Shown: positions 44,994 through 64,000 of the stretch, one piece after another
How the letters are laid out: the number at the start of each line of letters is the position of its first letter
How positions within the stretch are numbered: the stretch's first letter is position 1
NCBI GenBank assembly: GCA_964401355.1
Contig: CAYNYJ010000002.1
Span: forward strand, 6,116-70,115
DNA length: 64,000 nt
Source: an uncultured Ectothiorhodospiraceae bacterium
GTDB taxonomy: Bacteria > Pseudomonadota > Gammaproteobacteria > SZUA-152
Reading direction: 5' to 3'
Translations under genes and position numbers: made by a program
The notes under the pieces: model-generated
The model's input: the letters and a program-made list of their open reading frames with translations, nothing else
The model's database searches: none
Told to the model about the DNA's origin: nothing

Positions 44994-45123
44994 TTTGTGT
45001 ACACCGAAAACGAGTGGTGGGGGCGGGTAATCTCAAATGACAAAAATCCACTGAAAGCGCTAAATAGAGCGGGTAGTACTGTTTTTAAAAAATATCAAAT
45101 CTATTATCATCAATAACTTGTGA

Positions 45124-45151: not shown

Positions 45152-45212
45152 GTTACAATCCCTTCCTCGGTTATTCCCTCTTTATAAAATATGAGTTGTT
45201 GGAGAAAGTAAA

Positions 45213-45836: not shown

Positions 45837-45849
45837 CGTGTTGAATAAG

Positions 45850-46260: not shown

Positions 46261-46589
46261 TAGCCACAGCCGGTGCTGGAAGATGCGCCGGGTATGTGGG
46301 AGAACTCAGTCCCGGTTTTTGAGGTCACCACAGGCCTTTAGGCCAAGTTCCGCAAAGCCCATCATAAGAATAGCGGCGATGATCATCAGTCCCGACTATC
46401 ATCCTGGATTCCGGCAGTGGTTCCACCCTCCACTTTACGTGCAAGCAGCCGATAAGCGCTGCGTAATACAGCGCCACCGATCAGTGCATGGAAGGTTTAA
46501 ATCGTCATACTTTAGTGATAAAGACAATGCTCGACTAGTGCTACTATTCATATTATTGAAAATGATGATCACAATGGGCAGTGTAAAGA

Positions 46590-47048: not shown

Positions 47049-47084
47049 TTTTCCGCAAGCGGTAAACGCAATTCGCGTCGTCGA

Positions 47085-47687: not shown

Positions 47688-47698
47688 ATCGACTTATT

Positions 47699-47774
47699 TT
47701 CCGTCATTCCGGCGACGACCGGAATCCAGGAGCCCTCTAACGTCACTGGATTCCGGCATTCGCCGGAATGACGG
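47699..47774. repeat. REP-like nested palindromic element (CCGTCATTCCGGCG ... CGCCGGAATGACGG with an inner ACCGGAATCCAGG / CTGGATTCCGG) in the gspH-gspI junction
   Basis: 14-bp perfect outer inverted repeat plus an inner inverted repeat, read directly from sequence. Confidence 0.55.
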
Positions 47775-47796
47775 CAAAAGAACCAATCAGCATTTT

Positions 47797-48177
47797 TTGA
47801 ATGGTAAAAAAAATAAAAACTGCAAAGGCTTCACCCTGCTGGAAGTCCTCGTGGCCCTGGCGGTGATTGCCTTTGCGTTGGCCGCTGCCGCCAGCGCCGT
47901 TTCCGGTAACGCCCGTACCGCCTCCGGTCTTCAACAGCGCACTTACGCCCATTGGGTGGCGATGAATAAAATGACCGAGCTGCATGTTGCCAAGAAATGG
48001 CCTTCCATCACAACCACCAAAGGCAGCTCGTTGATGGCGCGCCATGAATGGTATTGGTCGATGAAGGTTAGCAAGACGCCGAATTTGTTAATTCGCCGCG
48101 TGGACGTGAGAGTGCGCTCGGAACAGAATGACGAATCACCACTGGTGACTCTAACTGGATTTATAGGTAGGCCATGA
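47797..48177 (+). CDS. gspI: Type II secretion minor pseudopilin GspI
   Basis: A TTG start gives the classic leader MNGKKNKNCKG-FTLLEVLVALAVIAF. The track ORF starting at 47677 would read through the REP element. Confidence 0.75.
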   Translation: MNGKKNKNCKGFTLLEVLVALAVIAFALAAAASAVSGNARTASGLQQRTYAHWVAMNKMTELHVAKKWPSITTTKGSSLMARHEWYWSMKVSKTPNLLIRRVDVRVRSEQNDESPLVTLTGFIGRP

Positions 48178-48806
48178 TGATGCGTCGCTGCTTTAATAAA
48201 CAAAACAGGAAGCAAGGCGGTTTTACCCTGCTGGAATTATTAATAGCGTTGGGAATTTTTGCCTTGCTGGCGGCAATGGGTTACAGCGGTCTTAGCAACG
48301 TGATGACGGCTCGCCAGATAACCAGCCAGCACGCCGAACGTTTAGCGCAATTGCAGATGGCCTTTTTATGGTTAGGTCGGGACATTGAGCAGGCTATTGA
48401 TCGTCCGATTCGTGATGAGTACGGTGATACCCGCCACGCCATGTTGGGAGTGGAGACCGGGCGCTATCAACTGGAACTGACCCGTAATGGCTGGCGCAAC
48501 CCGGCGGGGCGTGCGCGCAGCAGTCTGCAACGCGTGGCCTACGGATTGCGTGATGGCGAGTTGATTCGTGTTTACTGGAACGTGTTGGATCGCGCCCAGG
48601 ACAGCCAGCCATTGGAGAGCGTGCTGCTGGTGGGAATTGAAAAGCTGGAACTGCGTTTTCTCAATGATAAAAACCAGTGGCAGGCCTCTTGGCCAAGCAG
48701 GCAATTGGGTGGCCGGGCGAGTACCACGCCGCCCAGAGCGGTGGAGGTGACGCTGGAGACCGTGGCTGAGGGGCGTATCACCCGTTTGTTTCGGGTGCCC
48801 GGTTAA
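48174..48806 (+). CDS. gspJ: Type II secretion minor pseudopilin GspJ
   Basis: QGG-FTLLELLIALGIFALLAA prepilin-type N-terminus, 210 aa. Confidence 0.8.
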   Translation: MMMRRCFNKQNRKQGGFTLLELLIALGIFALLAAMGYSGLSNVMTARQITSQHAERLAQLQMAFLWLGRDIEQAIDRPIRDEYGDTRHAMLGVETGRYQLELTRNGWRNPAGRARSSLQRVAYGLRDGELIRVYWNVLDRAQDSQPLESVLLVGIEKLELRFLNDKNQWQASWPSRQLGGRASTTPPRAVEVTLETVAEGRITRLFRVPG

Positions 48807-49894
48807 TGATGTCTTTTTCTAAAAACACGCTGAAGGCTCCTTATAACAACACGCTGAAGGCTTCTTGTAACAACGCGCTGAAGGCTCCGTGCGGAAAACA
48901 ACAGGGCGTGGCGCTGATCACGGCGTTGCTGATCGCGGCGCTGGTGACGGTGGTGGCGGTGGCCATGGCCTCACGTCAGCAGTTGGATATTCGACGCACC
49001 GGCAACATGCTGGAAGCGGATCAGGCCTACCTTTACGCCCTCGCCGCAGAAACCTGGGCGATGCAGATGTTAAAAGAGGACCAACAAAAAACTTCGATTG
49101 ATGCTCTGGACGAAGATTGGGCAATCAAGCTGCCGCCGATTCCCGTCGAAGGCGGCATGATTAGCGGCAGTATCGAAGATTTGCAGGGCCGCTTTAATCT
49201 TAATAATCTCGTTAATGCAAATACGGGCAACAATACGGGCAACAATACGGGCAACAATGCTGGCAACAACGCAGGCAATAACGATGCTCCGGATCAGGTG
49301 CAGGTTAAAATTTTTCAGTCGTTGTTGGTGCAGGTCAGCCGGGCGAAAGAGGAGATGCAGCTTTCGCCCTTCGTGGCCAACCGGGTGGCTGACTGGATCG
49401 ACTCCAACCTCAACTCTTTGGCCGATGGTGCCGAAGATCTGGTGTATCTCGGTCTAGATAAGCTGCCGTATCGGACGGCGAATCGATTTATGGCCAGCCC
49501 CAGCGAGTTGGCAGCGGTGGCAAGCCTGTCACTGAGGGATGTGGCTGCCTTGTTGCCGTTAGTGGCCGCGTTGCCCGAAAGGACACCGGTCAATGTGAAT
49601 ACCGCGCGGGAGGAGGTGTTGCTGAGTTTGCATGAGGATATCAGCCTGTTGATTGCCAAGGAGCTGGTGGCATATCGTGTCGACAGCGCATTTGAGAATG
49701 TGACGGATTTTGTGAAAAAAATGAAGGATGATTACGACATTGCTCTGAACCCAACATTAGTCAGTGTCAGCAGTGAATACTTTCTGGTTTCCAGCGACGC
49801 GGCTATTGGCCGCACCACGCTACGCCTGTACAGTCTGTTAGCAAGAAAAAGCACGGGCATCCGTGTCGTGAGCCGAGGAATCGGGACGTATTAA
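48806..49894 (+). CDS. gspK: Type II secretion minor pseudopilin GspK (with two internal tandem-repeat tracts)
   Basis: QQGVALITALLIAALVTVVAVAMAS is a GspK-type N-terminal helix, and the product is 362 aa. The gene is start-stop coupled to gspJ (TAATG). Confidence 0.8.
   Translation: MMSFSKNTLKAPYNNTLKASCNNALKAPCGKQQGVALITALLIAALVTVVAVAMASRQQLDIRRTGNMLEADQAYLYALAAETWAMQMLKEDQQKTSIDALDEDWAIKLPPIPVEGGMISGSIEDLQGRFNLNNLVNANTGNNTGNNTGNNAGNNAGNNDAPDQVQVKIFQSLLVQVSRAKEEMQLSPFVANRVADWIDSNLNSLADGAEDLVYLGLDKLPYRTANRFMASPSELAAVASLSLRDVAALLPLVAALPERTPVNVNTAREEVLLSLHEDISLLIAKELVAYRVDSAFENVTDFVKKMKDDYDIALNPTLVSVSSEYFLVSSDAAIGRTTLRLYSLLARKSTGIRVVSRGIGTY
48827..48902 (+). repeat. 3 x 24-nt tandem repeat (ACGCTGAAGGCTCCTTATAACAAC) encoding NTLKAPYN / NTLKASCN / NALKAPCG at the 5' end of gspK
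   Basis: Read directly from sequence. Confidence 0.8.
49220..49279 (+). repeat. 5 x 12-nt tandem repeat (AATACGGGCAAC and variants) encoding (NTGN)3(NAGN)2 inside gspK
   Basis: Read directly from sequence. Confidence 0.85.
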
Positions 49895-49937
49895 TGGACG
49901 TCTTTACATACACAGGCGTTTCTAAACAAACATAAAT

Positions 49938-51272
49938 ATGCGCAAACAACTTTTCATTCAACTGCCTGTGGCGACGGTCGAATCGCTGGGCACCGACAGC
50001 GAAGCCGCCATGGACCTGCCGGCCAGTTGGGTGCTGCGCGACGTAGATCGTCCTGCGGGCGCTCTGTTTCACGGCAGGCTTAAGGACGCCGTTACCCAGG
50101 CTGTGGGAGCGCGGGTTAGCGTGCTGGTGCCAGGAGCGGATGTATTACTGGCACAGGTTGAACTGCCGACGATGAAGGCGCAGCGGCTGGCCAAGGCCGT
50201 GCCTTTTGCCCTGGAAGAACAGTTGACCGAGGACGTTGATGAGCTGCACGTGGCCATCGGCCAGCGTGATGCGCGGGGCCGGATAGCCAACGCGGTGGTG
50301 TCTCGCCGTCGGCTGGAAGCGTGGCTGGCGCAGCTCAAGGCCGCTGGCTTGCAAGCGGACGTGATGACTCCTGAAATATTTGGCGTGCATTGGGACGCGG
50401 ATGATACGTCCGGGCAGGCGAGCTGGTCGATGATGATCGACGATCAAAACGGTCTGTTGCGCACCGGGGCCCAAACCGGCCTGGCCTTTGATATGCGCAA
50501 TCTGATGCCAGTGTTGAAGGCCTGTATCGATGAAGCGGGTGACACGCCTCCGGCGTCCTTGCAATTGATTTTTTGTACGGATGCCAGCAGCGATGCGGGT
50601 AACGGCAGACGCTTTAGCGATTCCGATCAACACCGTGCCCTGGTGGAACTGTGTGCCGAACAGAACATCGATTTATCGTTACGCAGTGAGAGCGAAACAC
50701 GTAGCGTGATGCTGGCGCAGGGTTTTAATGAACAACACGCCATTAATCTGTTGCAGGGCGATTACAGTCGTAAACAGCAATTGGAAAAGTTGCTGCGCCC
50801 GTGGCGACCCGCGCTAATCCTGGCCGGACTGTGGTTGCTGTTACAGGTGGGCATGTTCACCCTGGAATACAGTCGTTTGTCGAGCCAGGACAGTGAGCTG
50901 AAAAAACAGATCGAAACCGTGTATAGCGAGGCCTTTCCGCAGTCGCGTAATATCGTGAATCCCAAGGTGCAGATGCAACGGGGTTTGGAAAAATTGCGCG
51001 GTGGCGGTGCTGAAAACGATGGCCTGTTATCGTTGTTGGCGCGCACTGGTGCGGTGCTCAAAGACACTCCGGGCGCACGTCTGCGCACCCTGCGATTTAA
51101 AAATAACAAACTGGATCTGGATGTGGAAATGCCGGACTTGCAGAGTCTGGACAAACTCAAACAGCGTTTGAGTGACGAGGCCAAGCTCAAGGTTGAGATC
51201 GTTTCGGCCTCTTCCCGCGAAGGTAAAGTTGAAAGTCGTTTGTCGTTGCAGGCTGCGGGAGGTGGACAATGA
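49938..51272 (+). CDS. gspL: Type II secretion protein GspL
   Basis: 444 aa with a cytoplasmic actin-like domain, a single TM helix (LILAGLWLLLQVGMF) and a periplasmic domain. Its position follows gspK. Confidence 0.75.
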   Translation: MRKQLFIQLPVATVESLGTDSEAAMDLPASWVLRDVDRPAGALFHGRLKDAVTQAVGARVSVLVPGADVLLAQVELPTMKAQRLAKAVPFALEEQLTEDVDELHVAIGQRDARGRIANAVVSRRRLEAWLAQLKAAGLQADVMTPEIFGVHWDADDTSGQASWSMMIDDQNGLLRTGAQTGLAFDMRNLMPVLKACIDEAGDTPPASLQLIFCTDASSDAGNGRRFSDSDQHRALVELCAEQNIDLSLRSESETRSVMLAQGFNEQHAINLLQGDYSRKQQLEKLLRPWRPALILAGLWLLLQVGMFTLEYSRLSSQDSELKKQIETVYSEAFPQSRNIVNPKVQMQRGLEKLRGGGAENDGLLSLLARTGAVLKDTPGARLRTLRFKNNKLDLDVEMPDLQSLDKLKQRLSDEAKLKVEIVSASSREGKVESRLSLQAAGGGQ

Positions 51273-51757
51273 AGACCTGGTTTAACGGTCTCGAAGCTAA
51301 CGAGCGTCGCATGTTGATGGTTGCTGCCCCGTTATTGCTGGCAATGTTATTTTATGTGGGTGCCTGGGAACCGTTGAACGATACCGTGGACTCCCTGCGG
51401 GTGAGCACCGCCGAGCAACAATCTTTGCTGGCCTGGATGCACAGTGCGGCACGGGAGGTTAAACAACTGCGTGCTCGCAGTACTCAACGCGCCAAGCCGG
51501 CCAGTGGCGGGTCATTGCTGAGTCTGGTGGATCGTACGGCTAAGTCTGGCCGCCTGGGCCCGGCGCTGAAACGGGTGCAGCCCGATGGCGATGATAAAGT
51601 CCGGGTGTGGCTGGAGTCCGCGAGTTTTGATGATATGGTGCGTTGGCTGATTGTGCTGCAAAATCGTCATGGGGTGCGCGTGGTCAGCAGTGTGTTCCAG
51701 GCGCTGGAAGAGACCGGGCGTGTGGATGCGCGTCTGGTGTTTGAGACGGACAGTTGA
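51269..51757 (+). CDS. gspM: Type II secretion protein GspM
   Basis: 162 aa with an N-terminal TM helix (MLMVAAPLLLAMLFYVGAW). The gene is translationally coupled to gspL. Confidence 0.7.
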   Translation: MKTWFNGLEANERRMLMVAAPLLLAMLFYVGAWEPLNDTVDSLRVSTAEQQSLLAWMHSAAREVKQLRARSTQRAKPASGGSLLSLVDRTAKSGRLGPALKRVQPDGDDKVRVWLESASFDDMVRWLIVLQNRHGVRVVSSVFQALEETGRVDARLVFETDS

Positions 51758-51873
51758 GGCTGGTGATTGAGCCCCGGTTTTGGTAAACGTTATTTTTCCA
51801 GCCAAGCTGCGCCTAGCCCTACCAGCACAGAATCTAAAACCGATTTTTTAATACTGACGACGATATTCCTGTT

Positions 51874-52680
51874 ATGAAATTTATTCCCCGTTTCCGTCAT
51901 CTGCCGCTACTGGTGTTTGGCCTGTTGGTCTATCTAGTGGCGCTGGTGATCACCTTTCCCGCCGATCGTGCCTATGCCCACTGGCAGGCCAGCGAGCAGG
52001 CGTCACCGGCATTTCGCCTGTCGAACATTAGTGGCAGTGTGTGGTCGGGCAAGGCCGGTGTGGCGATGGTCCAGAGCCAGCCGTTGGAACATGTGGAATG
52101 GAATCTGCGGCCCTGGACGTTATTGTTCGGCCAAGTGGGGCTGAGTTGGCGCTTTCAACTGCCTGCTGGAAATGAAAAAAAGGTGCAAGGCTACGGGCAG
52201 GGCACGACGGCTTTGGGGCTGGATGGCAGCGTGGCCTTTTCCAACCTGGAGGCACGTCTGCCGGCTGCCATGATTGCCGACATTGCCAAGGCCGGTGCCT
52301 TGCGTCCCATCGGTTCAGTGAGTCTGAACTTGCACGATGTGGTGTGGGATGGGCAAAGCCTGGTGACGGTGACGGGGCGGGTCGTTTGGCACGGCGCCGG
52401 GATTAGCCTGCTCAAACCGATAGCCCTGGGCGATCAATCGCTGACCTTTGAGACCGCCGATGGGATCGTAAAGGGTGTGCTCAGTGACGGTGGCGGGCCC
52501 TTGTCGCTGGATGGCCTGTTGACGCTGACGCCCAAGGGACAGTACGCATTCAATGGCAGCCTTGCCGCGCGTAATGCCCCGGATCTCGAACGTGCGTTGC
52601 ATTCATTGGGGCGTGCCGGGGTGGATGGCCGGATTACACTCAAGCGCTCGGGCAGTTTGGCGGGTTTGGGGCTGATTTAG
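51874..52680 (+). CDS. gspN: Type II secretion protein GspN
   Basis: 268 aa with an N-terminal TM anchor. It is the last gene of the gspG-N block. Confidence 0.6.
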   Translation: MKFIPRFRHLPLLVFGLLVYLVALVITFPADRAYAHWQASEQASPAFRLSNISGSVWSGKAGVAMVQSQPLEHVEWNLRPWTLLFGQVGLSWRFQLPAGNEKKVQGYGQGTTALGLDGSVAFSNLEARLPAAMIADIAKAGALRPIGSVSLNLHDVVWDGQSLVTVTGRVVWHGAGISLLKPIALGDQSLTFETADGIVKGVLSDGGGPLSLDGLLTLTPKGQYAFNGSLAARNAPDLERALHSLGRAGVDGRITLKRSGSLAGLGLI

Positions 52681-53236
52681 TGTGGCGTTAGTAGCCTGTC
52701 GGGCGAGGGCTACAAGGTGTATCTCGACAACAGCCTTCGTGCGTCACCTACCATCAAGGCTTGGGTAGAGTGCGCGATGGACAATGTCTATCCTGCACCC
52801 AGGAAGCTGAAACTATAATTAAGAGGCGCAATATTTGTTTCTGTGGGTTTAATCGTTCAGGGTAAATTCCCCGTCGCCCGCCCTAAGCGCCTACTTGTTG
52901 GTGGCGTTGCGAAAAGCGTAGGTCAGGTTGCACCAACTATTAACCCGGCTTCAAAATAGATCATCCTGATCCATTGTTGAGTCGCCCGCAAAACACCGGC
53001 GCAAATATGTGAATTTGCTTGTGTTTTGCGGGCTCGCGTTGGCTATCGCCAACGGCGGTGCGTCCCTGCACCGCACTATTAATCCAGCCTATAAAGCGGT
53101 CGGATTAATACCTGACAGCAAGTTGTCACGTAGCCTTCGGCAACGTGACCTACAGAAGTCTAATACCCCCGTAGCAGTAGCTTGCTGCGGGGTAGTCTAT
53201 TGCTACGGTATACTTCGTCCCTTGGGGTGGGGATGG

Positions 53237-53854
53237 TTAATGCAGCGGTTCCATTTCGATAAACTCGCCGGTATCCTGCACCACGCCATCGGCCTGCGCA
53301 TCCATGTAGCTTACATAGGCCTGCGGGTCATCGGCGTCAACAGGCACACCCGTGTCCTGGTGCGCAGCATTGCCATCCACATACATTTGCGGATTATCAA
53401 CATCGATAAATTCGCCCGTGTCTTGAATATCGCCCTGAGTGACGGCGCTGTTTGCTTGGGCATTCAGATAAACGACATAAGCCTGCGGGTCATCGGCGTC
53501 GATAAATTCTCCCGTATCTTGCACCAAGCCATCGTCAGCGGCATAGACCCCAGCATCGGGCCATGCCTCGTCCATCGGCAAGAGCGCGGGGAGTTCCGAC
53601 TGTGGGCTGGCAGTCACCGAATCCGACGGTGGCCCGCCGAAGGCGTTCCCGGATTCGACCGGCGCTACGGCAGGCGGAAAAATACTGGCCACCGTTTCCT
53701 CACCGGCTGCCTGAGGTAGCACAACATGCGGCGCATCGCCATGTCTTTGGTCATCAGCTTGGTCATTAGTGATGAAATACCACGACCCGGCCCCCGACAC
53801 CCAGCCGACCAACAGCGCAACAATAATTGGCCGTATTTTATTCATGGGCTGCAT
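53237..53854 (-). CDS. Membrane-anchored acidic repeat protein (QDTGEFIDADDPQAYV repeats)
   Basis: N-terminal TM helix IIVALLVGWVSGAGSWYF, then four copies of a (Q)DTG(E/V)(F/P)(I/V)D(A/V)D(D/N)PQ(A/M)YV motif. The start overlaps the upstream gene's stop by 1 nt. Confidence 0.55.
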   Translation of the reverse strand: MQPMNKIRPIIVALLVGWVSGAGSWYFITNDQADDQRHGDAPHVVLPQAAGEETVASIFPPAVAPVESGNAFGGPPSDSVTASPQSELPALLPMDEAWPDAGVYAADDGLVQDTGEFIDADDPQAYVVYLNAQANSAVTQGDIQDTGEFIDVDNPQMYVDGNAAHQDTGVPVDADDPQAYVSYMDAQADGVVQDTGEFIEMEPLH

Positions 53855-55959
53855 TAATTCACCCTGTCACTGGAAAGCAGACGAATCACCGCCGCTTCGT
53901 TGACCGTCGGGTTCCTGCCCGCGCTCACCTCGTTGCCATCCGTCACGCCATCGGCATCGCTGTCCGCCTTTTTGGGATCACTGCCCCATTGAGATTCCTG
54001 GAGATTGCTCAATCCATCGCCATCGGCATCCAGCGCCGCATCGGCCGGATTGTTGGGGTTAAACCCATAGCGCGCCTCAAAACCATCCGACAGGCCGTCG
54101 CCATCCGTGTCCGCCCTGTCCGGGCGCGTGCCGCGACGGTATTCGTCGATATTGCTCAGGCCGTCGCCATCGGCGTCCGCATCGGCATCGTCCACGTTGA
54201 CATCCAGGCCATAGGCATTTTCAAAACTGTCCGGCAGACCATCGTTGTCCGTGTCACCCATGCCGTCGCCCATCAACACCACCGCAAACACCGCCGCCTC
54301 GCTCACGCTTGGGTTCCGTCCCTGCTGATACTCCGCCAGATTGCTTACGCCATCGCTGTCTTTATCCAGACCTGCATCGGCGGGATCGAGGTGGTCCAGG
54401 CCATGCACTATTTCAAAACCATCGGGCATGCCGTCGCCGTCGCTGTCCGCAGAAGACGAGCGTGGATCGGTGCCGTTTTGGTATTCCCGCAAATTGCTCA
54501 GGCCATCGCCATCGGCATCCAGATTGGCGTCACCAGCGGACATGGGATTAAACCCCTGCTGCAACTCCCACACACTGGGCATGCCGTCGCCATCTGTATC
54601 TACGCCGGTTTCGCTCAGCGCCAGCACCCGAATCTGCCCCGGCACAATCACGCTGCTTTTTGTTGCATCGGTCGCCGCATCGGTAATGAAAATACTAAGA
54701 GGAAAGGCCCCGGCCACCGAGGGTGTGCCCGCCAGCCGCCCCGTTGCCTCATTGAGTGTTATGCCCGGCGGCAACTGCCCGCCTGCCAGCCCCCAGACGT
54801 ATGGCGTCTGGCCACCGCTCGCCACGGGCGTAAAACCAAAGCTGCGGTTGAGCAGCGTCTCCCTGACGAAAGACAGGCCCCGGAGGCTATCGGGGCCATC
54901 CTGGTTTAGCGTCCAGCCATCGGCCACAGCGGCATCGGTGCCCAACAAAGGCTCGACGGCATCGGGAATCCCGTCGCCGTCCCCGTCCGCCAGTGTTGTT
55001 GGCGGCAGGGCGCGCAGGGCCAGCGCGGTTTGCAGGGCATCCCCGCCCCAACTGCCGTTGCTGGAATTCTGGCTGGCGGCCAGAAAATCACGCGCCAAAT
55101 TCATCGCCGTCGCGGCGTTAATCGCCTCAGCAATGCCCACCTCCGTGGCCGCATCCAGCGCAATCAGCGCCAGCGCCGTTTGTTGGGCGCTCCCTGTAAC
55201 TACGTCGTCTGTATCAAGAAAAGCGTTATCGACCTGTTGTCGACTCAGCAACCAGTTGACGCCCCGGCTGATGTTGGAACTGACGTCCCAACCGATAGCG
55301 GAATAGTGGCTAAGCATCACCAGCGCATGACTGGTAGGAAGAATATGGCCCGAAAAAGAAGAACTCCTGGCGGAGAATGTCCAGCCAGCGTCACCGGCAT
55401 ATTGTAACCCGCTGATAATGCTGAGGGAAATACCCGCATCTGGATAGTCGACGCCGGAAACACGCAACGCCTCCATCGCCAGCGCCGTATCCAGCGCCCC
55501 CACCTGGTAACCGTCGAAGCTGCCCCAGCCTTTTTGCGTATTGCGCAACGCCACCAGGGCCGAGGGCAGACCGGCGGCCCGGGTATCCATGCCTGCGGCC
55601 TCCAGGGCGATAATCTTGCGCGCCAGGGCATCGACGCTGTTGGTGTGGGCATTGGCCAGCCAGGAAACCCCTCTCGAATACACCGCCCCGTGGCCAACGC
55701 CAACGTGGCGCAGGGCCGCCAGGGCCTCAGCGGTGGCCGCGACCGTTGCGCCGCCTTCGCCCGCTGTTGTTCCACGCACTGTTCCCCGCACTGTTCCCCA
55801 ACTACCGTCCTGGTGCTGCTCTGCCAACAGCCAGGCAAGGCCTCGCTCCCGGGCCGTATCAACCGTGGCGGTCACCGCCAAACCGACAGTGGCCCCCAGG
55901 CAAAGCACCGTGGCTATTAACACCGACCCGAAAACCCGGCGACCAGTTTCTTTTCTCAT
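53854..55959 (-). CDS. Secreted protein with prenyltransferase/terpene-cyclase-like alpha-alpha toroid repeats and C-terminal thrombospondin type-3-like Ca-binding repeats
   Basis: Signal peptide MRKETGRRVFGSVLIATVLCLGATVGLA. Multiple DxDxDGxxDxxE repeats (DTDGDGMPSVWE, DADGDGLSNLREY, DSDGDGMPDGFE, DKDSDGVSNLAEY, DTDNDGLPDSFE, DADGDGLSNIDEY, DTDGDGLSDGFE, DADGDGLSNLQES, DSDADGVTDGNE). Confidence 0.6.
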   Translation of the reverse strand: MRKETGRRVFGSVLIATVLCLGATVGLAVTATVDTARERGLAWLLAEQHQDGSWGTVRGTVRGTTAGEGGATVAATAEALAALRHVGVGHGAVYSRGVSWLANAHTNSVDALARKIIALEAAGMDTRAAGLPSALVALRNTQKGWGSFDGYQVGALDTALAMEALRVSGVDYPDAGISLSIISGLQYAGDAGWTFSARSSSFSGHILPTSHALVMLSHYSAIGWDVSSNISRGVNWLLSRQQVDNAFLDTDDVVTGSAQQTALALIALDAATEVGIAEAINAATAMNLARDFLAASQNSSNGSWGGDALQTALALRALPPTTLADGDGDGIPDAVEPLLGTDAAVADGWTLNQDGPDSLRGLSFVRETLLNRSFGFTPVASGGQTPYVWGLAGGQLPPGITLNEATGRLAGTPSVAGAFPLSIFITDAATDATKSSVIVPGQIRVLALSETGVDTDGDGMPSVWELQQGFNPMSAGDANLDADGDGLSNLREYQNGTDPRSSSADSDGDGMPDGFEIVHGLDHLDPADAGLDKDSDGVSNLAEYQQGRNPSVSEAAVFAVVLMGDGMGDTDNDGLPDSFENAYGLDVNVDDADADADGDGLSNIDEYRRGTRPDRADTDGDGLSDGFEARYGFNPNNPADAALDADGDGLSNLQESQWGSDPKKADSDADGVTDGNEVSAGRNPTVNEAAVIRLLSSDRVN

Positions 55960-56008
55960 ATCGCGTCCCTTCAGGAAACAGGCCCGACCACTACTTCAGG
56001 CCTAATCG

Positions 56009-56386
56009 CTACTTGTAGATATCTATCCGTCGCGCATAGCAATAACCATTGTGTTTTTTGGTGTTATCCACGTAGAGGGTGACTCGATAACCCAGCGCCA
56101 GCGCCAGTTGCGCCGACTCGAACTTGCGTTGGCCGGCATCCTTGTTGTTGTAAGTGCCATCGCAACTGAAGGTCAGCCAACGGCTGGGGCAGTTGGCGAT
56201 ATAGTCGCTTAGCGGTTTGTCGATCAGGATCATGCAGTCACCAAGAGACCCCGCATCACTGAGCGTTTGAGTCACTTTGACCCCGCTAAACCACACCACT
56301 TCAGCACTCGCCACCCCGGAACCCAGCACCGCCAGACCTGCCACCGCACCCAGAAACACCTGCTTCCACCGGTTCCACTTCAACAT
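56009..56386 (-). CDS. Small secreted cysteine-containing protein (about 125 aa), possibly a lectin/toxin-B-subunit-like protein
   Basis: Signal peptide MLKWNRWKQVFLGAVAGLAVLGSGVASA. Four Cys in the mature part. AAGGAGG ribosome-binding site 6 nt upstream of the ATG. It is the first gene of a three-gene minus-strand operon. Confidence 0.5.
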   Translation of the reverse strand: MLKWNRWKQVFLGAVAGLAVLGSGVASAEVVWFSGVKVTQTLSDAGSLGDCMILIDKPLSDYIANCPSRWLTFSCDGTYNNKDAGQRKFESAQLALALGYRVTLYVDNTKKHNGYCYARRIDIYK

Positions 56387-56883
56387 CGCTAACCTCCTTA
56401 TCTGTCTGTCATGGCCTGCTATCGGCCAAAAAATTCTATTGGTTTGATTGCTCACTGTATTTCACAAACTGTATTTCACAATAAGAACCCAATATCGGCA
56501 AGCCAAACCAAGTTCCTCGTTTGGTAGGTTGGTGGTGAGCCTGCGAACCCCAACACGACCGGTTCCGTTGGGGTTCGCAGGCTCACCACCAACCTACCCG
56601 CAAACACCATTTTATTCACTATGCCAGCATTGGTCTAGCGCCCTTTTTAAAGCAAGGCTTGTGACGCTCTTCACATGGCGCCCAGGCGGCACAACCCACA
56701 CGATGTCCATGAAAATACGGTAATCCCCCACCCAGGAGAAGTGTAAATATTACCATAAATTAATTGTGGCTTATGTGATATGTTTCGGCCAATGCCCGAT
56801 GCCGTGGCTGTTCCTGTTCCTTAAAGCAGGCAACGCACCAGGGCTGAGCAGTAGGGGCTAAACACAGGAGTAACAGGGACGAA

Positions 56884-59800
56884 ATGATCATGCGGACAAA
56901 GGCAAAGCGTGGGTTTCAGGTCACTCCGGTAACGACGGCAATTGTTGCCGTTGTGGCCATCACCCTGGTGGTTATCGCGACCGGGCCGGTATGGCGTGCG
57001 GACGATACCGCGCCCGCTCATGAATCACCTGTCGCCACGGCCCCCGGTGCAAATTCTGGCGGAAAGAATGCCCGAACCCCGGCGACTGCTGAAACAAAGG
57101 CGGCCATGCTCGACGCGGATACGCTGCGCCAACGGGTCGCCGGGGCCTGGCTGGCCACCGGTAAACCAGACAGAGCCAGTGAGCTAAGCTCCACGCTCGA
57201 CCATCATCTGGCGGATACTCGGCAACTGTTGACGCGACTGGTGTTGCAACGGGAAAGCGCCAGCGGACAATCGTCCCGGCACATCCTGCAACAGATCGCC
57301 TCCAAACAGGCCGAGTTCCTGACCCTGCGCGAGGAGGCCGAACGCTGGCTGGCCGACCACGACATGCAGGGTTCCGACCGGGCTTTGCAAATCACGCAGC
57401 GTTTCGAGCAGGTGAAAAGCGTACTCGCAGCCGTCATCAACACCACAGGCAACACTCCTCGCGACGCTCCTCACGACGCTCCTCACGACACCCAGACCCA
57501 AGCCATTGCGGCGGCGCAACAAACCCTGCAACGGCTGCATCCACCCCGCATCGGCATGCGCGGCGAACCCCAGCCAACGGTGACCCAGGGCGAACCCACC
57601 CAACTGACCCCGGACGATTTTCCCAATGCGCCTCCGCCCGCCTATGCCGCGCCTTCCGCGCCATCGGCAGCGATAAAGCAATCCACCACAGCCCCTATAG
57701 CGGGAACCCGCGTTGATTCCTTTGCTAACAGGTTTGGAGAGGAACTGTTCGGGGTCTTGAGCCGGTCGGTCGGCATCTCCACCGCCCACGCCGATGTGCT
57801 ACCTGCCACTCCGGCAGAGGCCGCCAGTTGCGGTTATGTCACCGCCGATGTCGCTTCGGCCCTGCCGGAGGTCGATGTCACCAATCTCGAAATCCAGGCC
57901 CTGGCCGAGCAACTGCAACACTCACCCCTGAAAATCTACGCCTGGATCAAGAACAACATCGAATTCCAGCCCTATTTCGGTTCCCTGAAAGGCGCTCTTG
58001 CTACCTTGAAAAGCGGTTCCGGCAATGCTACGGATCAGGCCTCACTGTTAATCGCGCTGATGCGCGTGTCCGGGTATCCAGCGCGGTATGTGTTGGGGGA
58101 AATTCGGTTGCCCGAGGATGATCGCTTGCTTAACTGGATTGGCACCACGGCGGGCAAAGGAGCGGCCGCCAGATTGTTCGCGAATCAAATCCCGACAACG
58201 TACTACACAAATACCGGTGGGGTAGCGTTCACCCATGTCTGGACAGAAGTCTGCGTGCCTTACGACAATTACCGGGGCAGCGGCAATGATAACAGCGGTT
58301 TTCACTGGATTCCGTTGGATCCCAGTTTCAAGGAGATGGCTTACACCGACGGCACCACAGTGGCCGGTATCCCCGGTTTTGAATTCGATTATGCCGATTA
58401 CCTCAGCACCCGCACCACGGTGATGCCCCACGAGGCCCTGCGGGACCAGATGGAAGCGGCGCTGGGCAAATCGCTGAAGCACGGCGGCGGTTACCGGGGC
58501 GCGATAGTGCAACGGGATATCGACATCCTGCCCAGCACGTTGCCTTACATAGTCAATAATTTTAAGGCCTGGGCTGGCAGCACGGCATCCGATACGGCGG
58601 CGCTGCCCGCGGCCCACCGGATTCAGGCGGAGTTTGTGCTCAAAAATGCCTCCAACGGGCCATTGGCGTCTGTGCTTACTCTCGATATGCCCACACTCGC
58701 CACCCGGCGTCTTACCCTGTCTTTCGAGGGCGTGACATCCACCGACCAAAGCTGGATTGATAACACTTGGGATGGCGAAACAACGCCCTGTGGCAACAGT
58801 AACGTACAAGCGCTCTTCAAGTTGGAAGGAATCGATGTCACCCCGGCAGGCACCCGCGATGCGGTCGATTTTTGCACCAGGAATAATCGGCTCGGCATCA
58901 CCATCCGCCGTAATAGCGTGGTCTACAACAGAGTCAACTACCAAAACATCGGCGGTCACAACTATCATGCCCTGCAAGCTTATGCCTTTCATGCCTCCGA
59001 CCGTCTGCTGGAGGAGCGTGCCGCCAAGTTGTTGACTACCGTCGGTACCACGCCAAACCCCAACGCCTTGCAGGACGAAACATTGGGGGAATACCTGCAT
59101 ATTGTGGGTCTGAAATACATGGGCTACATCACTAATGCCTTCAAAACCGTCGGGGAACTTCATGAGGCAACCGGCGACAGCGGTCACCACATCGGTTTGA
59201 CCTCCACTGCCATGAAGGTGAGCTACTTGTTTGATCTACCCTTTGCGGTCTCCCGAGGGGGGTTATTGGTGGATGTGCCGGGCGGACAATCCCGTAGCAC
59301 CAGTATCAACGACGGCACACCGAACTTCGCCACCTTCTTGCTCAGTGGTTATGCCGCTTCCGCCTACGAATCCTACATTTGGCAGGAACACGCTTACCTG
59401 GATGCCGTGAGTACCGTGCGGGGTATTCAATACGCCAATGATCAGAGTGTTCCGGTGGTCACCCTGGTCAGCGCAGCGGATGTAGACAATAAATTAAACC
59501 AGTCCTGTTCCACAACGCCTCGAAGTCTTATTTATTCTGAATCACTCAAAGCTCCCCTCAAACAACTGTTTAGCAGTGGCTATTTCAGGGTCACGTTGCC
59601 TGGTTGTCTGATTCATTATGATGACTGGCTCGGAGCTGTATGGGTTGCGGAATACAATGTAGACAATGTATTTAAAGCAAGTTACAAAATCTCCGGCAAT
59701 TATGTCCTCGCTGACGGCGGTTACACCCTCTCCACCCCCGTCCCTTTGTTCTATGAAGGCGCACGTGACACCGGTTATCAGAATTACATGCTGCCATCGA

Positions 59801-62800
59801 TATCCAACGAACTTTTCCGCGCTCCCACCGGCAATACGACATTTAGCATCGTCAGCGCAGGCAATGGTTCCGGCACCGGCCTAACGCCTAGCACCAGCTT
59901 CGGCGGTGACCCCGTTAATTTGGTTTCCGGTAACATGTACACGCAGGAGCGGGACATCGACCTCAAGGGCCGCGGTGGCCTGAACATCGTCTTCGAGCGT
60001 TTTTACAATTCCCACGTTCGCAAAGACGGCCCGCTGGGCTACGGTTGGACCCACAGCTTCAACCATTACCTGAAATTCTTCGACGATAATAATGACGGTA
60101 ATGGCGACGGCAACATCAACCGCGTCATCTGGGTGGACGGCACCGCCAGCACTAACAGCTTTTCCGTGGCGGGTACGGCCAGTGGCGTGCCGCTCGACAC
60201 CACACTGACCAACCCCAAGGGCATTTACGTGACCGCCCGGCGTGAGGCCAACGGCGAATATCGTATTCGCGAAAAAGGTGGGTTGACGCTGTATTTTGAA
60301 AATATGCCCGGCAGGGCAGGGGACACCGCCCGCCTGCTACGTCTCGTCGACCGCAACGGCAACACCCTGCGTATGAACTATGGCAATAACAACAGCGGCA
60401 CCAATCTCACCTCGGTACAGGACGACATCAATCGTCGTCTGACGTTTTATTACGATAACGGCGATCAGCACATCACCCGCGTTACCGACTGGAGCGGCCG
60501 CACCTTTCGTTACGCCTATGCCAATAACAACCTGGTGGGTTTTGATTCGCCGCTGGCGGTGGAGGGCCAGATCGGCTCGACGGTTTACCATTATTACACC
60601 GCCGCCGATGGCACCAATCTCGACCACGCCATGGCGTCCTTCACCCGCCCGACGGGTTATTCGATGAGCTTCGAGTATTACACCAACGGCAAAACCTTCC
60701 GCCACACCGACAGCCTGGGCCAGAGTTTTACCTTTCGGTACAACACCTTCCGCCGCGAGACCACCACGGTGGATGAGCGCGGCATTAGCCAGACTTATTT
60801 GTTCAACGAGTGGGGCCAGCAGCTTCAGCATGTGCGTGGCGACGATTCGCGGGCGCGGTACGAATACACCGACGACGCTCATCCACTGAAAGAAACCCGG
60901 CGCATTCATGCCCTGGGCTATGTGACGCAAAACCGCTATGACGCAACGGGCAATCTGACCCAATCCACCTTGCCCGATGGCAGTACGCAGGCATATTTGG
61001 GCTATAACGCCTTCGGTTTGCCCACCCAAATCACCGACGCTAACGGTAACGTGACGCTGCATCGTTTTGACGCCAACGGCAATCGCACCGATACCATTAC
61101 GCTGAAAAAGGGCCGCACGGTGGCGACCCCGGCCACCACTCCGGCCTCCGGTGATGTCCTCGCCTGGACCATCAATACTTACGATAGCAGTGGCAATCTG
61201 AAAACCACCCAACAAGTGCGTGATTTTACGACCGTGGCCGGGCCGACGATTGAATACAGCTACGACGGCTCTCAGCTAAACCCGACCACTATTAAGCGCT
61301 GCGGCCTGCAACACGACGTTTCTTCATTGCCTGATGGCGCCCTCACCAACCGCTGCGTGAGCGTGGCGCAGAGCTTCGACACCCTGGGCAGACCCACAAA
61401 AATCGCCACCAATAATTTCTACACCCGGCTACGAAACTACGACGCCAATGGCCGCGTTACACGCGCTACCGACGCTACAAACCGCTGGCGTGACTATAGC
61501 TACAATGCCAATGGCCAGCCCGCGGGCCAAAGCCTGGCCGGGGTCGATGCGGATGGCAATGTCGCTCTGCTCGATCACGGCAGTACCGCGTTTGATGACC
61601 TGGGTCGCCCCGTCAGCCGTTTTGACAGCGCCGGTTTCGGCACTCACACGGCATACGACGAAACCGGTAACGTCACCGCCATCACCAATCCCGATGGTTA
61701 CACCGTGCGCTTTGAATACGATGGCATGAACCGACCCACCCGCGCCTTTGATGAGCACGGCCACGCGGTCAGCACCGATTACGACATCGGTGGCCGACCT
61801 ATCAAAGTCACCGATCCCAACGACAACAGCACGGTGTATGATTATTACGAGGCCGCAGAAAATGGCCGCCTCAAACGCCTCATCCAGGCCGATGGCCAGT
61901 GGCGGGAGTATTTTTACGACCGCAACGGTAACGTGATCAAAACCCGCGACAACGCCAACCGCGAAACCCGCACCGATTTCGATGCCTTGAACCGGCCCAT
62001 CCGCAGCGTCGGCCCGGTGCATAACAGCCACAATCTGAACAATATCCGCCAGGTGACCGTCACCGATTACAGCGAACTCGGCACTGTGAAAAACATCAGG
62101 GCAGGGTACACCGCCAACACCAGCGGCAGTTCTGGTGGCACCCCAGGCAACGATGTGCTCAGCACCCAGGCCACTTTTGCCTACGACGACTTCGGTCGCC
62201 GCATCCGCCAGCTTGATGCCAACGGCAAGGCCACCCAAACCCTCTACGACGATTACGGCAACCCCGTGCGCAAAACCTCCCCCAACGGCCACATCGTCGA
62301 ATGGGCCTACGACCATGCCCGCAACGGCTTATTGACCAAACAGACCGCCAAAACCTCCGCCACCGACGCCAGCCCCCACGTCACCACCACCGCCTACAAT
62401 GCCCTCGGTCAGGTGAGCAAAGTCACCAGCCCCGAGGTCATTTACACGTATCGTTATGGCCCGGACAACCGCCTCAAAACCGTCACCGACAGCCGCGGCA
62501 ACAAGACCCTAAAATACACCCGCAGCCCCGGCGGCCAACTCACCGCCATCGCCGACAGCGATGCCAGTGGCAACCCCAACGGCCACCGCAGCGATTTTCT
62601 CTACGACGCCGCCCGACGTCTCACCGCCATTACCACGACCCCTAAATCCGGCAACAGCGAGCAGATCAACTTCCTGCTTGACGCCGGTGGCCGCCTGCAA
62701 GAAACCAACCTCCCCAACGGCGTCAGCGCCCGGTATCAATATGACGCCGGCAACAAACTCACCCAACTGGTTAACCGCACCCGCCAGGGCGTCATCAGCC

Positions 62801-64000
62801 GACATAACTACGATTATGATGGCGTCGGTCGCAGAACCACCCACACCGAAACCATCGCCAACAAGACCACCCATTATGGTTATGCCTACGACAACCTTGA
62901 TCGTCTCACAAAAGTCCTCAACGGCAGCACAAGCATCGAAACCAGCACCTACGATCAATACAACAACCGTCGCAGCCGCGCCTTCGCCACCACCAGCGGC
63001 AACATCACCCACTACTACCAGCATGACGCCGCCCAGCAGCTCAACCAAATCCTCACTGGCTCCGACACCGGCAGCGAAGCCGCCCGCTTCCAATACGACA
63101 ACAACGGCAACCTGACCTATAAAAACGAAAACGGCGTAACACGCAGCTACACCTACAACGCCCTCGAACGGCTGAAAAAAGTCGAAAGCAGCGACATCAA
63201 CACCGAAAGTTACCGTTACGACCCGCAGGGGCGACGCATCGAAAAAACCGTTGCAGGCACAACAAATACCACCACCCGCTACCACTACAGCGGCCAAAGC
63301 CTCTGGGCCGAGTACCAAAGCTGGGGAGAAGCGCTGGCCCACTACACCTACAGCGGCCTCGACCGGCCCATCGCCCGAACCACCCCCACCGCCGCCGACA
63401 CCCGCTACTACCACCACGACGGCCTAGGCTCCCCCATCGCCGTCAGCGACACCAACGGCAACATCACCGCCGCCACTCGTTTCGACGCCTGGGGCAACAA
63501 AATAGCTGCCCTCGGTGGCACCACGCCCCACTTCGGTTACACTGGCCAAGTCCCCGACGCCAATGGGCTGATACATTATCGGGCAAGGTATTACGATCCG
63601 AGCATAGGGCGCTTCACCCAGCGTGATCCGGCGGGGTTTTCCGATGGGATTAATTTGTATGCGTACGTGGGTAATTCGCCGACGAACTTTACTGATCCGT
63701 TGGGGTTGGGGAGGTTGGCGGTGGGGGCTACGGGCGGGTTGGGGTCTTCGTTTCCGGGGGATAGGGGTGGTAGTTCAGCGATAGATAATTCAAATAATTA
63801 TCTAGTTGGTCGGCCTCTAAGTTTTTCAGATAGTGCTGGTCATTTGTTTGTTGTAACAGGCGCAAACCATATAGGTGACCCTAATGCATTAATCTATTCT
63901 TTTGGTGATTCTGGTGGTGATACTTTGTCCATTGTGACGAATGAAACATCAGGTTTCTCTGAGGGGGCGCATCAAAGCGACATTAACTATTGGCAATCAC
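56884..64000 (+). CDS. Giant Rhs/YD-repeat polymorphic toxin, 3'-partial (more than 2372 aa). Domain order: N-terminal TM anchor, Pro-rich linker, transglutaminase-like domain with the catalytic Cys replaced, beta-rich region, dozens of YD/RHS repeats, RHS core (DPLGL) and the start of a low-GC C-terminal toxin module
   Basis: Hand-translated continuous frame-1 ORF with no stop up to the window end; it is absent from the ORF track because it has no stop. Transglutaminase-like motifs: GSGNATDQASLLIALMRVSGYPARYV and HVWTEVCVPY...GFHWIPLDPS. Repeated YxYDxxGR(L/V) motifs run throughout. RHS core YYDPSIGRFTQRDPAGFSDGINLYAYVGNSPTNFTDPLGLG is at about 63590-63715. Confidence 0.85.
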   Translation, partial: MIMRTKAKRGFQVTPVTTAIVAVVAITLVVIATGPVWRADDTAPAHESPVATAPGANSGGKNARTPATAETKAAMLDADTLRQRVAGAWLATGKPDRASELSSTLDHHLADTRQLLTRLVLQRESASGQSSRHILQQIASKQAEFLTLREEAERWLADHDMQGSDRALQITQRFEQVKSVLAAVINTTGNTPRDAPHDAPHDTQTQAIAAAQQTLQRLHPPRIGMRGEPQPTVTQGEPTQLTPDDFPNAPPPAYAAPSAPSAAIKQSTTAPIAGTRVDSFANRFGEELFGVLSRSVGISTAHADVLPATPAEAASCGYVTADVASALPEVDVTNLEIQALAEQLQHSPLKIYAWIKNNIEFQPYFGSLKGALATLKSGSGNATDQASLLIALMRVSGYPARYVLGEIRLPEDDRLLNWIGTTAGKGAAARLFANQIPTTYYTNTGGVAFTHVWTEVCVPYDNYRGSGNDNSGFHWIPLDPSFKEMAYTDGTTVAGIPGFEFDYADYLSTRTTVMPHEALRDQMEAALGKSLKHGGGYRGAIVQRDIDILPSTLPYIVNNFKAWAGSTASDTAALPAAHRIQAEFVLKNASNGPLASVLTLDMPTLATRRLTLSFEGVTSTDQSWIDNTWDGETTPCGNSNVQALFKLEGIDVTPAGTRDAVDFCTRNNRLGITIRRNSVVYNRVNYQNIGGHNYHALQAYAFHASDRLLEERAAKLLTTVGTTPNPNALQDETLGEYLHIVGLKYMGYITNAFKTVGELHEATGDSGHHIGLTSTAMKVSYLFDLPFAVSRGGLLVDVPGGQSRSTSINDGTPNFATFLLSGYAASAYESYIWQEHAYLDAVSTVRGIQYANDQSVPVVTLVSAADVDNKLNQSCSTTPRSLIYSESLKAPLKQLFSSGYFRVTLPGCLIHYDDWLGAVWVAEYNVDNVFKASYKISGNYVLADGGYTLSTPVPLFYEGARDTGYQNYMLPSISNELFRAPTGNTTFSIVSAGNGSGTGLTPSTSFGGDPVNLVSGNMYTQERDIDLKGRGGLNIVFERFYNSHVRKDGPLGYGWTHSFNHYLKFFDDNNDGNGDGNINRVIWVDGTASTNSFSVAGTASGVPLDTTLTNPKGIYVTARREANGEYRIREKGGLTLYFENMPGRAGDTARLLRLVDRNGNTLRMNYGNNNSGTNLTSVQDDINRRLTFYYDNGDQHITRVTDWSGRTFRYAYANNNLVGFDSPLAVEGQIGSTVYHYYTAADGTNLDHAMASFTRPTGYSMSFEYYTNGKTFRHTDSLGQSFTFRYNTFRRETTTVDERGISQTYLFNEWGQQLQHVRGDDSRARYEYTDDAHPLKETRRIHALGYVTQNRYDATGNLTQSTLPDGSTQAYLGYNAFGLPTQITDANGNVTLHRFDANGNRTDTITLKKGRTVATPATTPASGDVLAWTINTYDSSGNLKTTQQVRDFTTVAGPTIEYSYDGSQLNPTTIKRCGLQHDVSSLPDGALTNRCVSVAQSFDTLGRPTKIATNNFYTRLRNYDANGRVTRATDATNRWRDYSYNANGQPAGQSLAGVDADGNVALLDHGSTAFDDLGRPVSRFDSAGFGTHTAYDETGNVTAITNPDGYTVRFEYDGMNRPTRAFDEHGHAVSTDYDIGGRPIKVTDPNDNSTVYDYYEAAENGRLKRLIQADGQWREYFYDRNGNVIKTRDNANRETRTDFDALNRPIRSVGPVHNSHNLNNIRQVTVTDYSELGTVKNIRAGYTANTSGSSGGTPGNDVLSTQATFAYDDFGRRIRQLDANGKATQTLYDDYGNPVRKTSPNGHIVEWAYDHARNGLLTKQTAKTSATDASPHVTTTAYNALGQVSKVTSPEVIYTYRYGPDNRLKTVTDSRGNKTLKYTRSPGGQLTAIADSDASGNPNGHRSDFLYDAARRLTAITTTPKSGNSEQINFLLDAGGRLQETNLPNGVSARYQYDAGNKLTQLVNRTRQGVISRHNYDYDGVGRRTTHTETIANKTTHYGYAYDNLDRLTKVLNGSTSIETSTYDQYNNRRSRAFATTSGNITHYYQHDAAQQLNQILTGSDTGSEAARFQYDNNGNLTYKNENGVTRSYTYNALERLKKVESSDINTESYRYDPQGRRIEKTVAGTTNTTTRYHYSGQSLWAEYQSWGEALAHYTYSGLDRPIARTTPTAADTRYYHHDGLGSPIAVSDTNGNITAATRFDAWGNKIAALGGTTPHFGYTGQVPDANGLIHYRARYYDPSIGRFTQRDPAGFSDGINLYAYVGNSPTNFTDPLGLGRLAVGATGGLGSSFPGDRGGSSAIDNSNNYLVGRPLSFSDSAGHLFVVTGANHIGDPNALIYSFGDSGGDTLSIVTNETSGFSEGAHQSDINYWQS

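Follow-up and report, generated by a model that had tools for sequence, protein, structure and literature searches.

A Sec-type Rhs polymorphic-toxin gene with a probably displaced C-terminal tip of an unnamed domain family in an uncultured Ectothiorhodospiraceae bacterium

Architecture and relatives of the Rhs gene

The DNA analysed here (the window) comprises 64,000 nucleotides (nt) of contig CAYNYJ010000002.1, from assembly GCA_964401355.1 of an uncultured Ectothiorhodospiraceae bacterium, and it ends inside the Rhs polymorphic-toxin gene that is the subject of this report. The 5′ part of the gene lies on the forward strand at 56884-64000, as do all of its features given below, and was translated into 2372 codons that are free of stops up to the window end, in agreement with an earlier note on this DNA, which had described an open reading frame (ORF) of more than 2372 codons. 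The ATG at 56884 is also the start chosen in an independent Joint Genome Institute (JGI) gene call on a second contig, L012, where the gene end at 5698 corresponds to window position 56884. The stop codon lies beyond the window; the missing length was estimated from 49 homologues that have 80-100 residues past the window-equivalent point, and the full-length protein is predicted to reach ~2455-2465 amino acids (aa).

The protein begins with a putative N-terminal Sec signal or signal anchor (56884-56997) composed of MIMRTKAKRGFQ, 25 hydrophobic residues and RADD. This call is a by-eye judgement of the translation; the same type of N-terminus, with a positively charged n-region and a 25-residue hydrophobic stretch, was found in all 15 relatives inspected, some of which have clear AxA signal-peptidase sites. 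A low-complexity linker of ~300 residues (aa 38-345) separates the signal anchor from the first recognised domain and contains a 12-nt tandem repeat (57455-57489; period 12, 2.9 copies by TRF) that encodes PRDAPHDAPHD, very much where the earlier note had seen it (~57455-57490). The domain that follows is transglutaminase-like, with a papain fold (57919-58323, aa 346-480; Pfam PF01841 Transglut_core, 3.7e-16), and lacks the catalytic Cys: Ala382 stands at the Cys position, whereas His451 and Asp479 of the triad are kept. Across 114 family members the Cys column holds A, D, S or P and never C, with conserved His and Asp, so that the domain is, to judge from these residues, a family-wide pseudo-enzyme. 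DUF6531 (59905-60108, aa 1008-1075; Pfam PF20148, 1.8e-18) precedes the YD-repeat shell (60109-63708), which is matched by RHS_repeat (PF05593, 1.1e-59, in 7 stretches) and YD_repeat_2x (TIGR01643, 6e-38) and contains the motifs YDPSIGRF, DPAGF and DPLGL. The shell ends in an RHS-associated core (Rhs_assc_core, TIGR03696, 7.2e-23, aa 2201-2275) whose last residues are 'SPTNFTDPLGL' (aa 2265-2275). The DPLGL motif itself, read in the translation at 63694-63708 (aa 2271-2275) and reported in the earlier note as a DPxGL at about 63700, is predicted to be where the Rhs shell undergoes C-terminal autoproteolysis, a role that passages of the Rhs literature assign to DPxGL motifs (PMC8636562; PMC8765631).

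A search of 5.8 billion proteins recovered at least ~120 relatives of ~2350-2600 aa that share the Transglut_core-DUF6531-RHS architecture; the best of these, P0001 and P0002, are 73% and 67% identical, and the named sources include Methylomonas, Thiobacillus, Geobacter and Permianibacter. Relatives that are 52-73% identical across core and linker bear unrelated tips. In the family at large, the tips include HNH, AHH, WHH, LHH, Tox-REase-7, Tox-SHH, RNase, NucA/NucB and other domains. As the tips carry so many different known toxin domains, the family is one of polymorphic toxins. An Imm-SUFU gene lies 3′ of P0002. The region 3′ of the Rhs gene of the closest JGI relative (L003, 17603-22029) has a G+C content (GC) of 38.9% and carries genes for an Imm-SUFU and a DUF6258 protein along with a row of short ORFs; it looks like an immunity or orphan array.

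The composition break and the toxin domain

Nucleotide composition changes abruptly near the 3′ end of the sequenced gene. In 200-nt windows, GC falls from 0.55-0.69 to 0.48, and it is 0.415 over the last 300 nt. At third codon positions, GC (GC3) is 0.70 in codons 1-2294 and 0.24 in the last 78 (codons 2295-2372), whereas at first and second positions together it stays nearly flat (0.52 to 0.48); the shift is therefore one of codon usage and not of amino-acid content. The maximum-likelihood GC3 change point falls at nt 63766 with a log-likelihood ratio (LLR) of 33.0, compared with a maximum of 8.4 and a mean of 2.65 in 300 permutations, and GC3 is at least 0.40 in every upstream window of 78 codons. 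The GC drop that the earlier note had seen from about 63780 is thus real and abrupt; GC is not uniform through the 3′ end, and the drop is far beyond chance. The window as a whole has a GC of 51% and the Rhs body one of 55-62%. Compared with the genome, the core is therefore rich in GC, and the tip is rich in AT. Classical Rhs elements are built likewise, a GC-rich core with an A+T-rich tip being the published signature of C-terminal displacement (PMC2935791). Among the relatives, L003 displays the same pattern of high core and low tip (gene body 59.3% GC, downstream 38.9%), and the profile of L002 is alike.

An earlier step in codon usage, absent from the first description of this DNA, was found at nt ~63562, 44 codons before DPLGL, at '...GLIHYRARYYDPSIGRF' in the ARYYDPxxGRF region. 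Here the share of codons ending in C (C3) drops from 0.50 to 0.13 and that of codons ending in G (G3) rises from 0.21 to 0.51, with an LLR of 43 for the C3 change point. Delimited by this change point and by segment composition, the core end and the linker after DPLGL (63562-63765) have a codon usage of their own (third positions G 0.51, T 0.31, C 0.13) and are probably the 5′ homology arm of an incoming cassette. An early loss of C3 ahead of the tip was also seen in L002 and L003, and two orphan cassettes of the same toxin family (P0204 and P0206, from Shewanella and Colwellia) begin with 'MQARYYDP.IGRF', that is, at the site equivalent to ~63562. A codon switch at ARYYDPxxGRF, together with orphan cassettes that start there, fits recombination inside the conserved core end.

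Alignment with the nine closest relatives places a family-conserved linker directly after DPLGL (GRLAVGATGGLGSSFPGDRGG, 63709-63771). Its ~20 residues follow the pattern GRxAVxxGxxxxSS[FY]xG, which reads GRLAVGATGGLGSSFPG in the window and GRQAVTVGNGGTSTYAG, SRVNAAVMSVPQSSFPG and similar in the relatives. Homology to these nine proteins runs through DPLGL and the linker and vanishes from aa ~2296-2300 (nt ~63770-63780), and identity to P0001 and P0002 collapses after aa ~2285-2300; likewise, codon-aligned nucleotide identity to L002 and L003 falls from 0.6-0.8 to ~0.4 and below between 63736 and 63796. The end of homology coincides with the GC3 change point at 63766 and with the start of the toxin domain. 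The composition switch thus follows DPxGL, as had been claimed, but the motif is not the swap point, from which it is separated by the conserved linker. The claim that the 3′ end bears the signature of a horizontally swapped C-terminal toxin gains support, the break being at once the end of homology and the start of a domain that is found on unrelated carriers.

This domain, hereafter the tip, occupies 63784-63999 (aa 2301-2372; GC3 0.24) and comprises the N-terminal 72 of the ~160 residues that make up an unnamed toxin domain with the motifs RPL, H-L/N-F, GDP, YSFG and D..W. In an hmmsearch with the family profile (A1), the tip scored 91 bits (E 3.9e-30) over profile positions 4-77 of 163 and kept 15 of 17 conserved columns. 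The invariant positions of the family are R, H (HNF), A, G-D, S, G, V, T, D, W, Y and N-S (N-S-N-S-A-A). When 1.84 billion representatives were scanned in full with HMMER, 64 proteins were recovered at E <=1e-3 (best 1e-19), and the closest tip in the metagenome family scan is only 59% identical. Almost all tip homologues continue for 80-100 residues past the homologous segment, which indicates a domain of ~160 residues whose first half is in the window. The earlier note had placed both the toxin domain and its immunity gene beyond the window; this holds for the remaining ~86 residues and for the immunity gene, but not for the first half of the domain. The tip family also rides on other Rhs/YD-shell proteins with different N-termini, such as a TcB/TcC-like fusion (P0171; SpvB + TcdB_mid + RHS) and an FG-GAP/pectate-lyase-like YD protein (P0168), and it occurs in the orphan ORFs P0204 and P0206, which start inside the core.

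The search of the C-terminal sequence against toxin-domain models that the earlier note had proposed was run and matched no named toxin family in Pfam or NCBIfam. Indeed, neither database gave a match above threshold for the window tip or for its 30 + 64 homologues. The 99 residues after DPLGL have no Pfam match, a word-indexed protein search with them was also empty, a sequence profile search of the PDB found nothing relevant, and Foldseek comparisons of tip models with the PDB (twice) and with BFVD gave no significant neighbour. A weak match to acyl-CoA-binding protein (E 0.036) and matches to RCC1 were dismissed as chance.

Structure prediction offers a lead to the fold. Confident AlphaFold2 models were obtained for two different members, P0204 (mean predicted local distance difference test score, pLDDT, of 86; across residues 51-190, blocks of 10 residues average 94-99) and P0134 (mean pLDDT 90.6, predicted template-modelling score 0.87). 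The top PDB match of both models in Foldseek was TseH (6v98), a papain-like NlpC/P60 effector of the Vibrio cholerae type VI secretion system (T6SS), at non-significant E-values of 1.7 and 0.52 and template-modelling scores of 0.23-0.30. In addition, one of 30 tip members matches DUF3750, a papain-like family in which Ser replaces Cys (PMC10318531), at E 0.0023, short of the cut-off. In the modelled secondary structure the invariant H63 is in a strand (58-70), and the invariant N159-S160-N161, which belongs to the part outside the window, opens a helix (160-172). An invariant His on a strand combined with N-S-N-S at the start of a helix would recall a permuted papain-like site with Ser for Cys; unlike TseH, the tip has no Cys. 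A papain-like identity of the tip is a possible lead and not a result.

Genes located downstream of the tip bear on its site of action. We collected 67 loci encoding the tip family and recovered, in 66 of them, an ORF starting ~-40 to +250 nt from the toxin stop. More than half of these ORFs (38/66) belong to one family of ~130-150 residues with a single N-terminal transmembrane helix, a 'YI[DN]E..T.G..YGF.IG' motif and a C-terminal '..ELP'; one member has a lipoprotein-type signal instead of the helix. Another seven form a family of ~160 residues with five transmembrane segments, and the rest are mostly small polytopic proteins, two ORFs corresponding to a polytopic protein of 341 residues. 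The gap between the toxin stop and the downstream ORF is typically -4 to +25 nt, and none of the downstream families is in Pfam. These membrane proteins are presumed to be immunity proteins. Because the next gene mostly encodes a small membrane protein, anchored or polytopic, the toxin would act in the periplasm or at the inner membrane, most likely as an enzyme; immunity conferred by a protein in the membrane whose domain faces the periplasm would fit such a target. The seven tips closest to that of the window (L011, L020, L019, L004, L017, L016 and L025) are all followed by the single-helix type, and this type is therefore predicted here: the unseen 3′ part should consist of ~86 more toxin codons and then, after at most ~20 nt, an immunity gene ~130-150 codons long, whose product has a single transmembrane helix at its N-terminus.

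Orphan tip cassettes starting inside the core with 'MQARYYDP' are seen in L004 (6001-7026, Shewanella xiamenensis) and L011 (3046-4190, Pseudoalteromonas sp. L7), each followed without any gap (0 nt) by a gene for a 141-aa protein with a single transmembrane segment. The Shewanella pair is set among an integrase, IS21 and several toxin-antitoxin genes.

Proposed origin and action of the gene, and alternatives

We consider it likely that the gene encodes a Sec-exported Rhs (YD-shell) polymorphic toxin with a displaced toxin cassette at its 3′ end, a mode of release and delivery like that of its family, and a tip that acts in the envelope. Its parts follow the order signal anchor, Cys-less transglutaminase-like domain, DUF6531, YD shell, RHS core and variable C-terminal toxin. 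The last ~440 nt of the window would have come in as a toxin cassette, exchanged for a previous tip through homologous recombination in the conserved core end (C-terminal displacement). This cassette would have brought its own last ~45 core codons and the linker after DPLGL (63562-63765, with codons that end in G or T) as well as, from ~63770, the AT-rich toxin domain, and the resulting gene would be a mosaic of resident core, cassette-borne core end and linker, and toxin, if the displacement model (PMC2935791) applies here. By extension from the family, the shell would enclose the toxin, aspartyl-protease motifs predicted around DPLGL would cut it free, and the released fragment of ~180-190 residues would be delivered to a neighbouring bacterium. 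Export would not involve the T6SS and would probably depend on Sec and on the conserved toroid/He_PIG protein secreted from the neighbouring locus, which is described in the last section.

Several other explanations were weighed. Most characterised proteobacterial Rhs toxins are T6SS cargo, as far as titles in the literature tell, and the sources of some relatives use the label 'type IV secretion protein Rhs', an uninformative legacy name. An effector mounted on VgrG via a PAAR or prePAAR domain is nevertheless very unlikely at this locus, given that Pfam and NCBIfam detect no PAAR, prePAAR or VgrG in the Rhs protein and that its N-terminus, like those of the 15 relatives, is a classical positively charged and hydrophobic Sec signal. 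Furthermore, no T6SS, PAAR or VgrG genes were found in the flanking ORFs, in ten other large window ORFs scanned, in the JGI calls covering 43.8-62.6 kb or beside four relatives, and the architecture is assigned to Sec-dependent export in passages of Zhang et al. (PMC3482391). A YD-shell toxin of the Tc-like or teneurin-like kind, directed against eukaryotes and not antibacterial, might be suggested by the occurrence of the tip family on the TcB/TcC-like fusion with SpvB and TcdB_mid (P0171). We give this view very little credence: Pfam finds no TcA/TcB domains in the Rhs protein, a small gene is nearly always tightly linked 3′ of the tip family, which is the mark of toxin-immunity pairs used against kin, and sister proteins bear nuclease tips of the classic antibacterial sort, for which immunity families are known, for instance the Imm-SUFU after P0002. 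A cytoplasmic site of action is unlikely too. Here the tip would be a nuclease, an NADase or an ADP-ribosyltransferase and the downstream membrane proteins would not be immunity proteins, as might be expected from the fact that nucleic acids are the target of most polymorphic-toxin tips (PMC3482391, in the passages compared) and from an immunity role that is deduced from position. Against it stand the predicted transmembrane segments in most of the 66 downstream ORFs, with 38 of them in one single-helix family, and the failure of Pfam, NCBIfam, the PDB sequence search and Foldseek to detect any nuclease, deaminase or ADP-ribosyltransferase family in the tip; the only recurring structural neighbour, a non-significant one, is TseH, a T6SS effector that acts in the periplasm.

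The AT-rich end might also be an assembly chimera, or the remnant of a decayed pseudogene at a contig end, and two independent copies of the locus are relevant in this respect. L013 (JGI 3300029216) is 100% identical to window positions 53738-58204, and L012 (JGI 3300033050, Ga0348266_1000859) is 99.7% identical over 43834-62591. The latter lacks 10 nt (CTGTTAATCG) at 58045-58054, within the transglutaminase-like 'ASLLIAL' motif; its frame is shifted and its Rhs gene is called as two pieces of 388 aa and at least 1510 aa. This deletion reflects a genuine null allele or else an error in the assembly. L012 also has clusters of single-nucleotide polymorphisms (SNPs) in the YD repeats at 61638-61689, 61872-61953 and 62538-62584, just before its contig end at 62591, which suggest strain microdiversity or recombination among Rhs repeats. 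The earlier note had named a frameshift or an in-frame stop on re-sequencing as the sign of a pseudogene: L012 is frameshifted, whereas the window and L013, from a different sample, are intact, L013 being identical to the window across the deletion site. The frame of the window stays open across both composition switches, the family-specific linker after DPLGL is exactly as in the relatives, the AT-rich part matches the toxin-domain profile in frame (E 4e-30) with 15 of the 17 conserved columns, and L002 and L003 have the same compositional profile at the same place. A chimera or a decayed remnant is for these reasons highly improbable, even though 62592-64000 has no second retrievable assembly and L012 stops right after its SNP clusters.

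Some observations weigh against a displaced, Sec-exported, envelope-acting toxin and are gathered here. The frameshifting deletion in L012 is one, and another is that a single assembly shows the final 1.4 kb of the window (62592-64000), as the JGI contigs reach only 62591 or 58204. A scan of JGI metagenomes with exact 50-mers for a continuation found nothing, and the only match of a protein-pattern scan over GTDB genomes, to a LysM repeat in Rhodococcus, was spurious and was rejected. The stop codon and the immunity gene of the window copy therefore lie outside the sequence seen, as does the catalytic half of the domain, with the N-S-N-S helix, and any activity of this copy is therefore presumptive. 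Within the part that is seen, the tip departs from its family at two columns, with Ala where 30/30 profile members have Thr and Ser where 29/30 have Gly. The assignment of immunity is drawn from gene position only, and the recombination history from composition and relatives. Finally, the adjacent type II secretion operon, which is not conserved near the relatives, does not explain the route across the outer membrane.

Several published systems come close to this gene. Zhang, de Souza, Anantharaman, Iyer and Aravind (Biol Direct 7:18, 2012; PMC3482391) described, in the passages compared here, a class composed of a signal peptide or transmembrane segment, an inactive transglutaminase, RHS and a polymorphic toxin, which they filed under Sec/type II export and in which an anchoring role was proposed for the dead transglutaminase. 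Like this class, the window protein combines a signal peptide or transmembrane segment, a transglutaminase without one residue of the triad, RHS repeats and a variable toxin. It differs from those passages in three respects: a linker of ~300 residues precedes the transglutaminase-like domain, which the paper places 'immediately after'; the tip has no Pfam match, unlike the toxin families named there; and the toroid/He_PIG partner gene does not figure in them. Enterobacterial Rhs elements (Jackson et al., 2009; PMC2935791) have the same GC-high core, GC-low tip and boundary beside a hyperconserved core end, and both orphan Rhs cassettes (Koskiniemi et al., 2014; PMC3967940) and the displacement model (PMC2935791) involve cassettes that carry a piece of core as a recombination arm. 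In contrast to the enterobacterial elements with their T6SS-linked clades, the delivery module here is of the Sec/transglutaminase-like type, divergence begins ~20-25 residues after DPxGL, behind a conserved linker, and no orphan array is visible on the 3′ side, where the sequence ends inside the gene. The T6SS effectors RhsA of P. protegens (PMC8765631) and Rhs1 of P. laumondii (PMC8636562), whose shells have been solved, share the YD shell, the RHS core, a DPxGL-type motif and a presumably encapsulated toxin; unlike them, the present protein has no PAAR or prePAAR and no VgrG or chaperone genes, exceeds 2372 aa and includes an additional N-terminal region of ~1000 residues.

Tip displacement at this locus is thus the textbook pattern, in the Sec-type class of Rhs toxins with inactive transglutaminase described in 2012. 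As a clean, ordinary example of the process, it may be used as a positive control when toxin cassettes are sought by composition, and it illustrates that the break can fall ~25 codons past DPxGL while an earlier step in codon usage marks the recombination arm. Two leads go beyond the routine, namely a toxin family that has not been named, apparently acts on the envelope and has membrane-bound partners, and a conserved accessory protein. A domain of ~160 residues without a name or a solved relative, with a membrane-bound presumptive immunity protein, is of the kind that yields new antibacterial activities and envelope targets.

Secreted neighbours and genomic context

A divergent trio of genes for secreted proteins of 125, 701 and 205 aa (53237-56386, reverse strand; ORF and JGI calls, domain scans) lies on the other side of the Rhs start. 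The 701-aa protein has a signal peptide, an alpha/alpha-toroid region that matches SQHop_cyclase and TED (TED/terpenoid-cyclase-like), He_PIG and TSP3 repeats; the thioester motif (CGEQ) is absent from this TED-like protein. A secreted protein containing He_PIG adjoins the transglutaminase-like Rhs gene in every family locus inspected, that is, in the window, L002 (2235-5554), L003 (6255-9666), L080 (5398-6972) and L081 (3486-7001). It is divergent in L002 and L003, and co-directional and abutting in L080 (Geobacter anodireducens) and L081 (Permianibacter). Toroid matches (SQHop_cyclase/TED) are present in the window, L002 and L080, and TSP3 in the window, L002 and L003, whereas L081 has He_PIG only. 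Additionally, in P0087 and P0094 the toroid/He_PIG partner and the Rhs protein form a single fused protein. This comparative evidence is good and argues that the toroid/He_PIG protein is a functional partner or accessory factor of the Rhs family. It flags a conserved secreted partner for Sec-type Rhs toxins. It is conceivable, if doubtful, that the tip and its single-helix partner found an undescribed toxin-immunity family, in which the toxin would be an envelope-acting hydrolase with a Ser/His site and a fold that has no significant neighbour in the PDB, and, as a linked possibility, that the Sec-exported transglutaminase-like Rhs proteins with their toroid/He_PIG partner provide Gram-negative bacteria with a T6SS-independent delivery route for Rhs toxins.

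Located 4 kb upstream of the Rhs module, at ~46600-52680 on the forward strand, is a type II secretion operon with gspG, H, I and J, a gene for 362 aa, and L, M and N. Its linkage was rejected as evidence on export, the operon not being conserved beside the relatives. Between the divergent genes, upstream of the Rhs start, lies an inverted repeat of 32 bp (56523-56598) that is perfect and has a loop of 12 nt. A repeated element was considered and rejected, as the sequence occurs nowhere else in the window; in L012, the perfect symmetry of the inverted repeat is broken by two SNPs. Further away, the window encodes an L-lysine epsilon-oxidase similar to LodA (LodA_N + LodA_C; 6281-8380, reverse strand), a member of a family of antimicrobial enzymes that generate H2O2.

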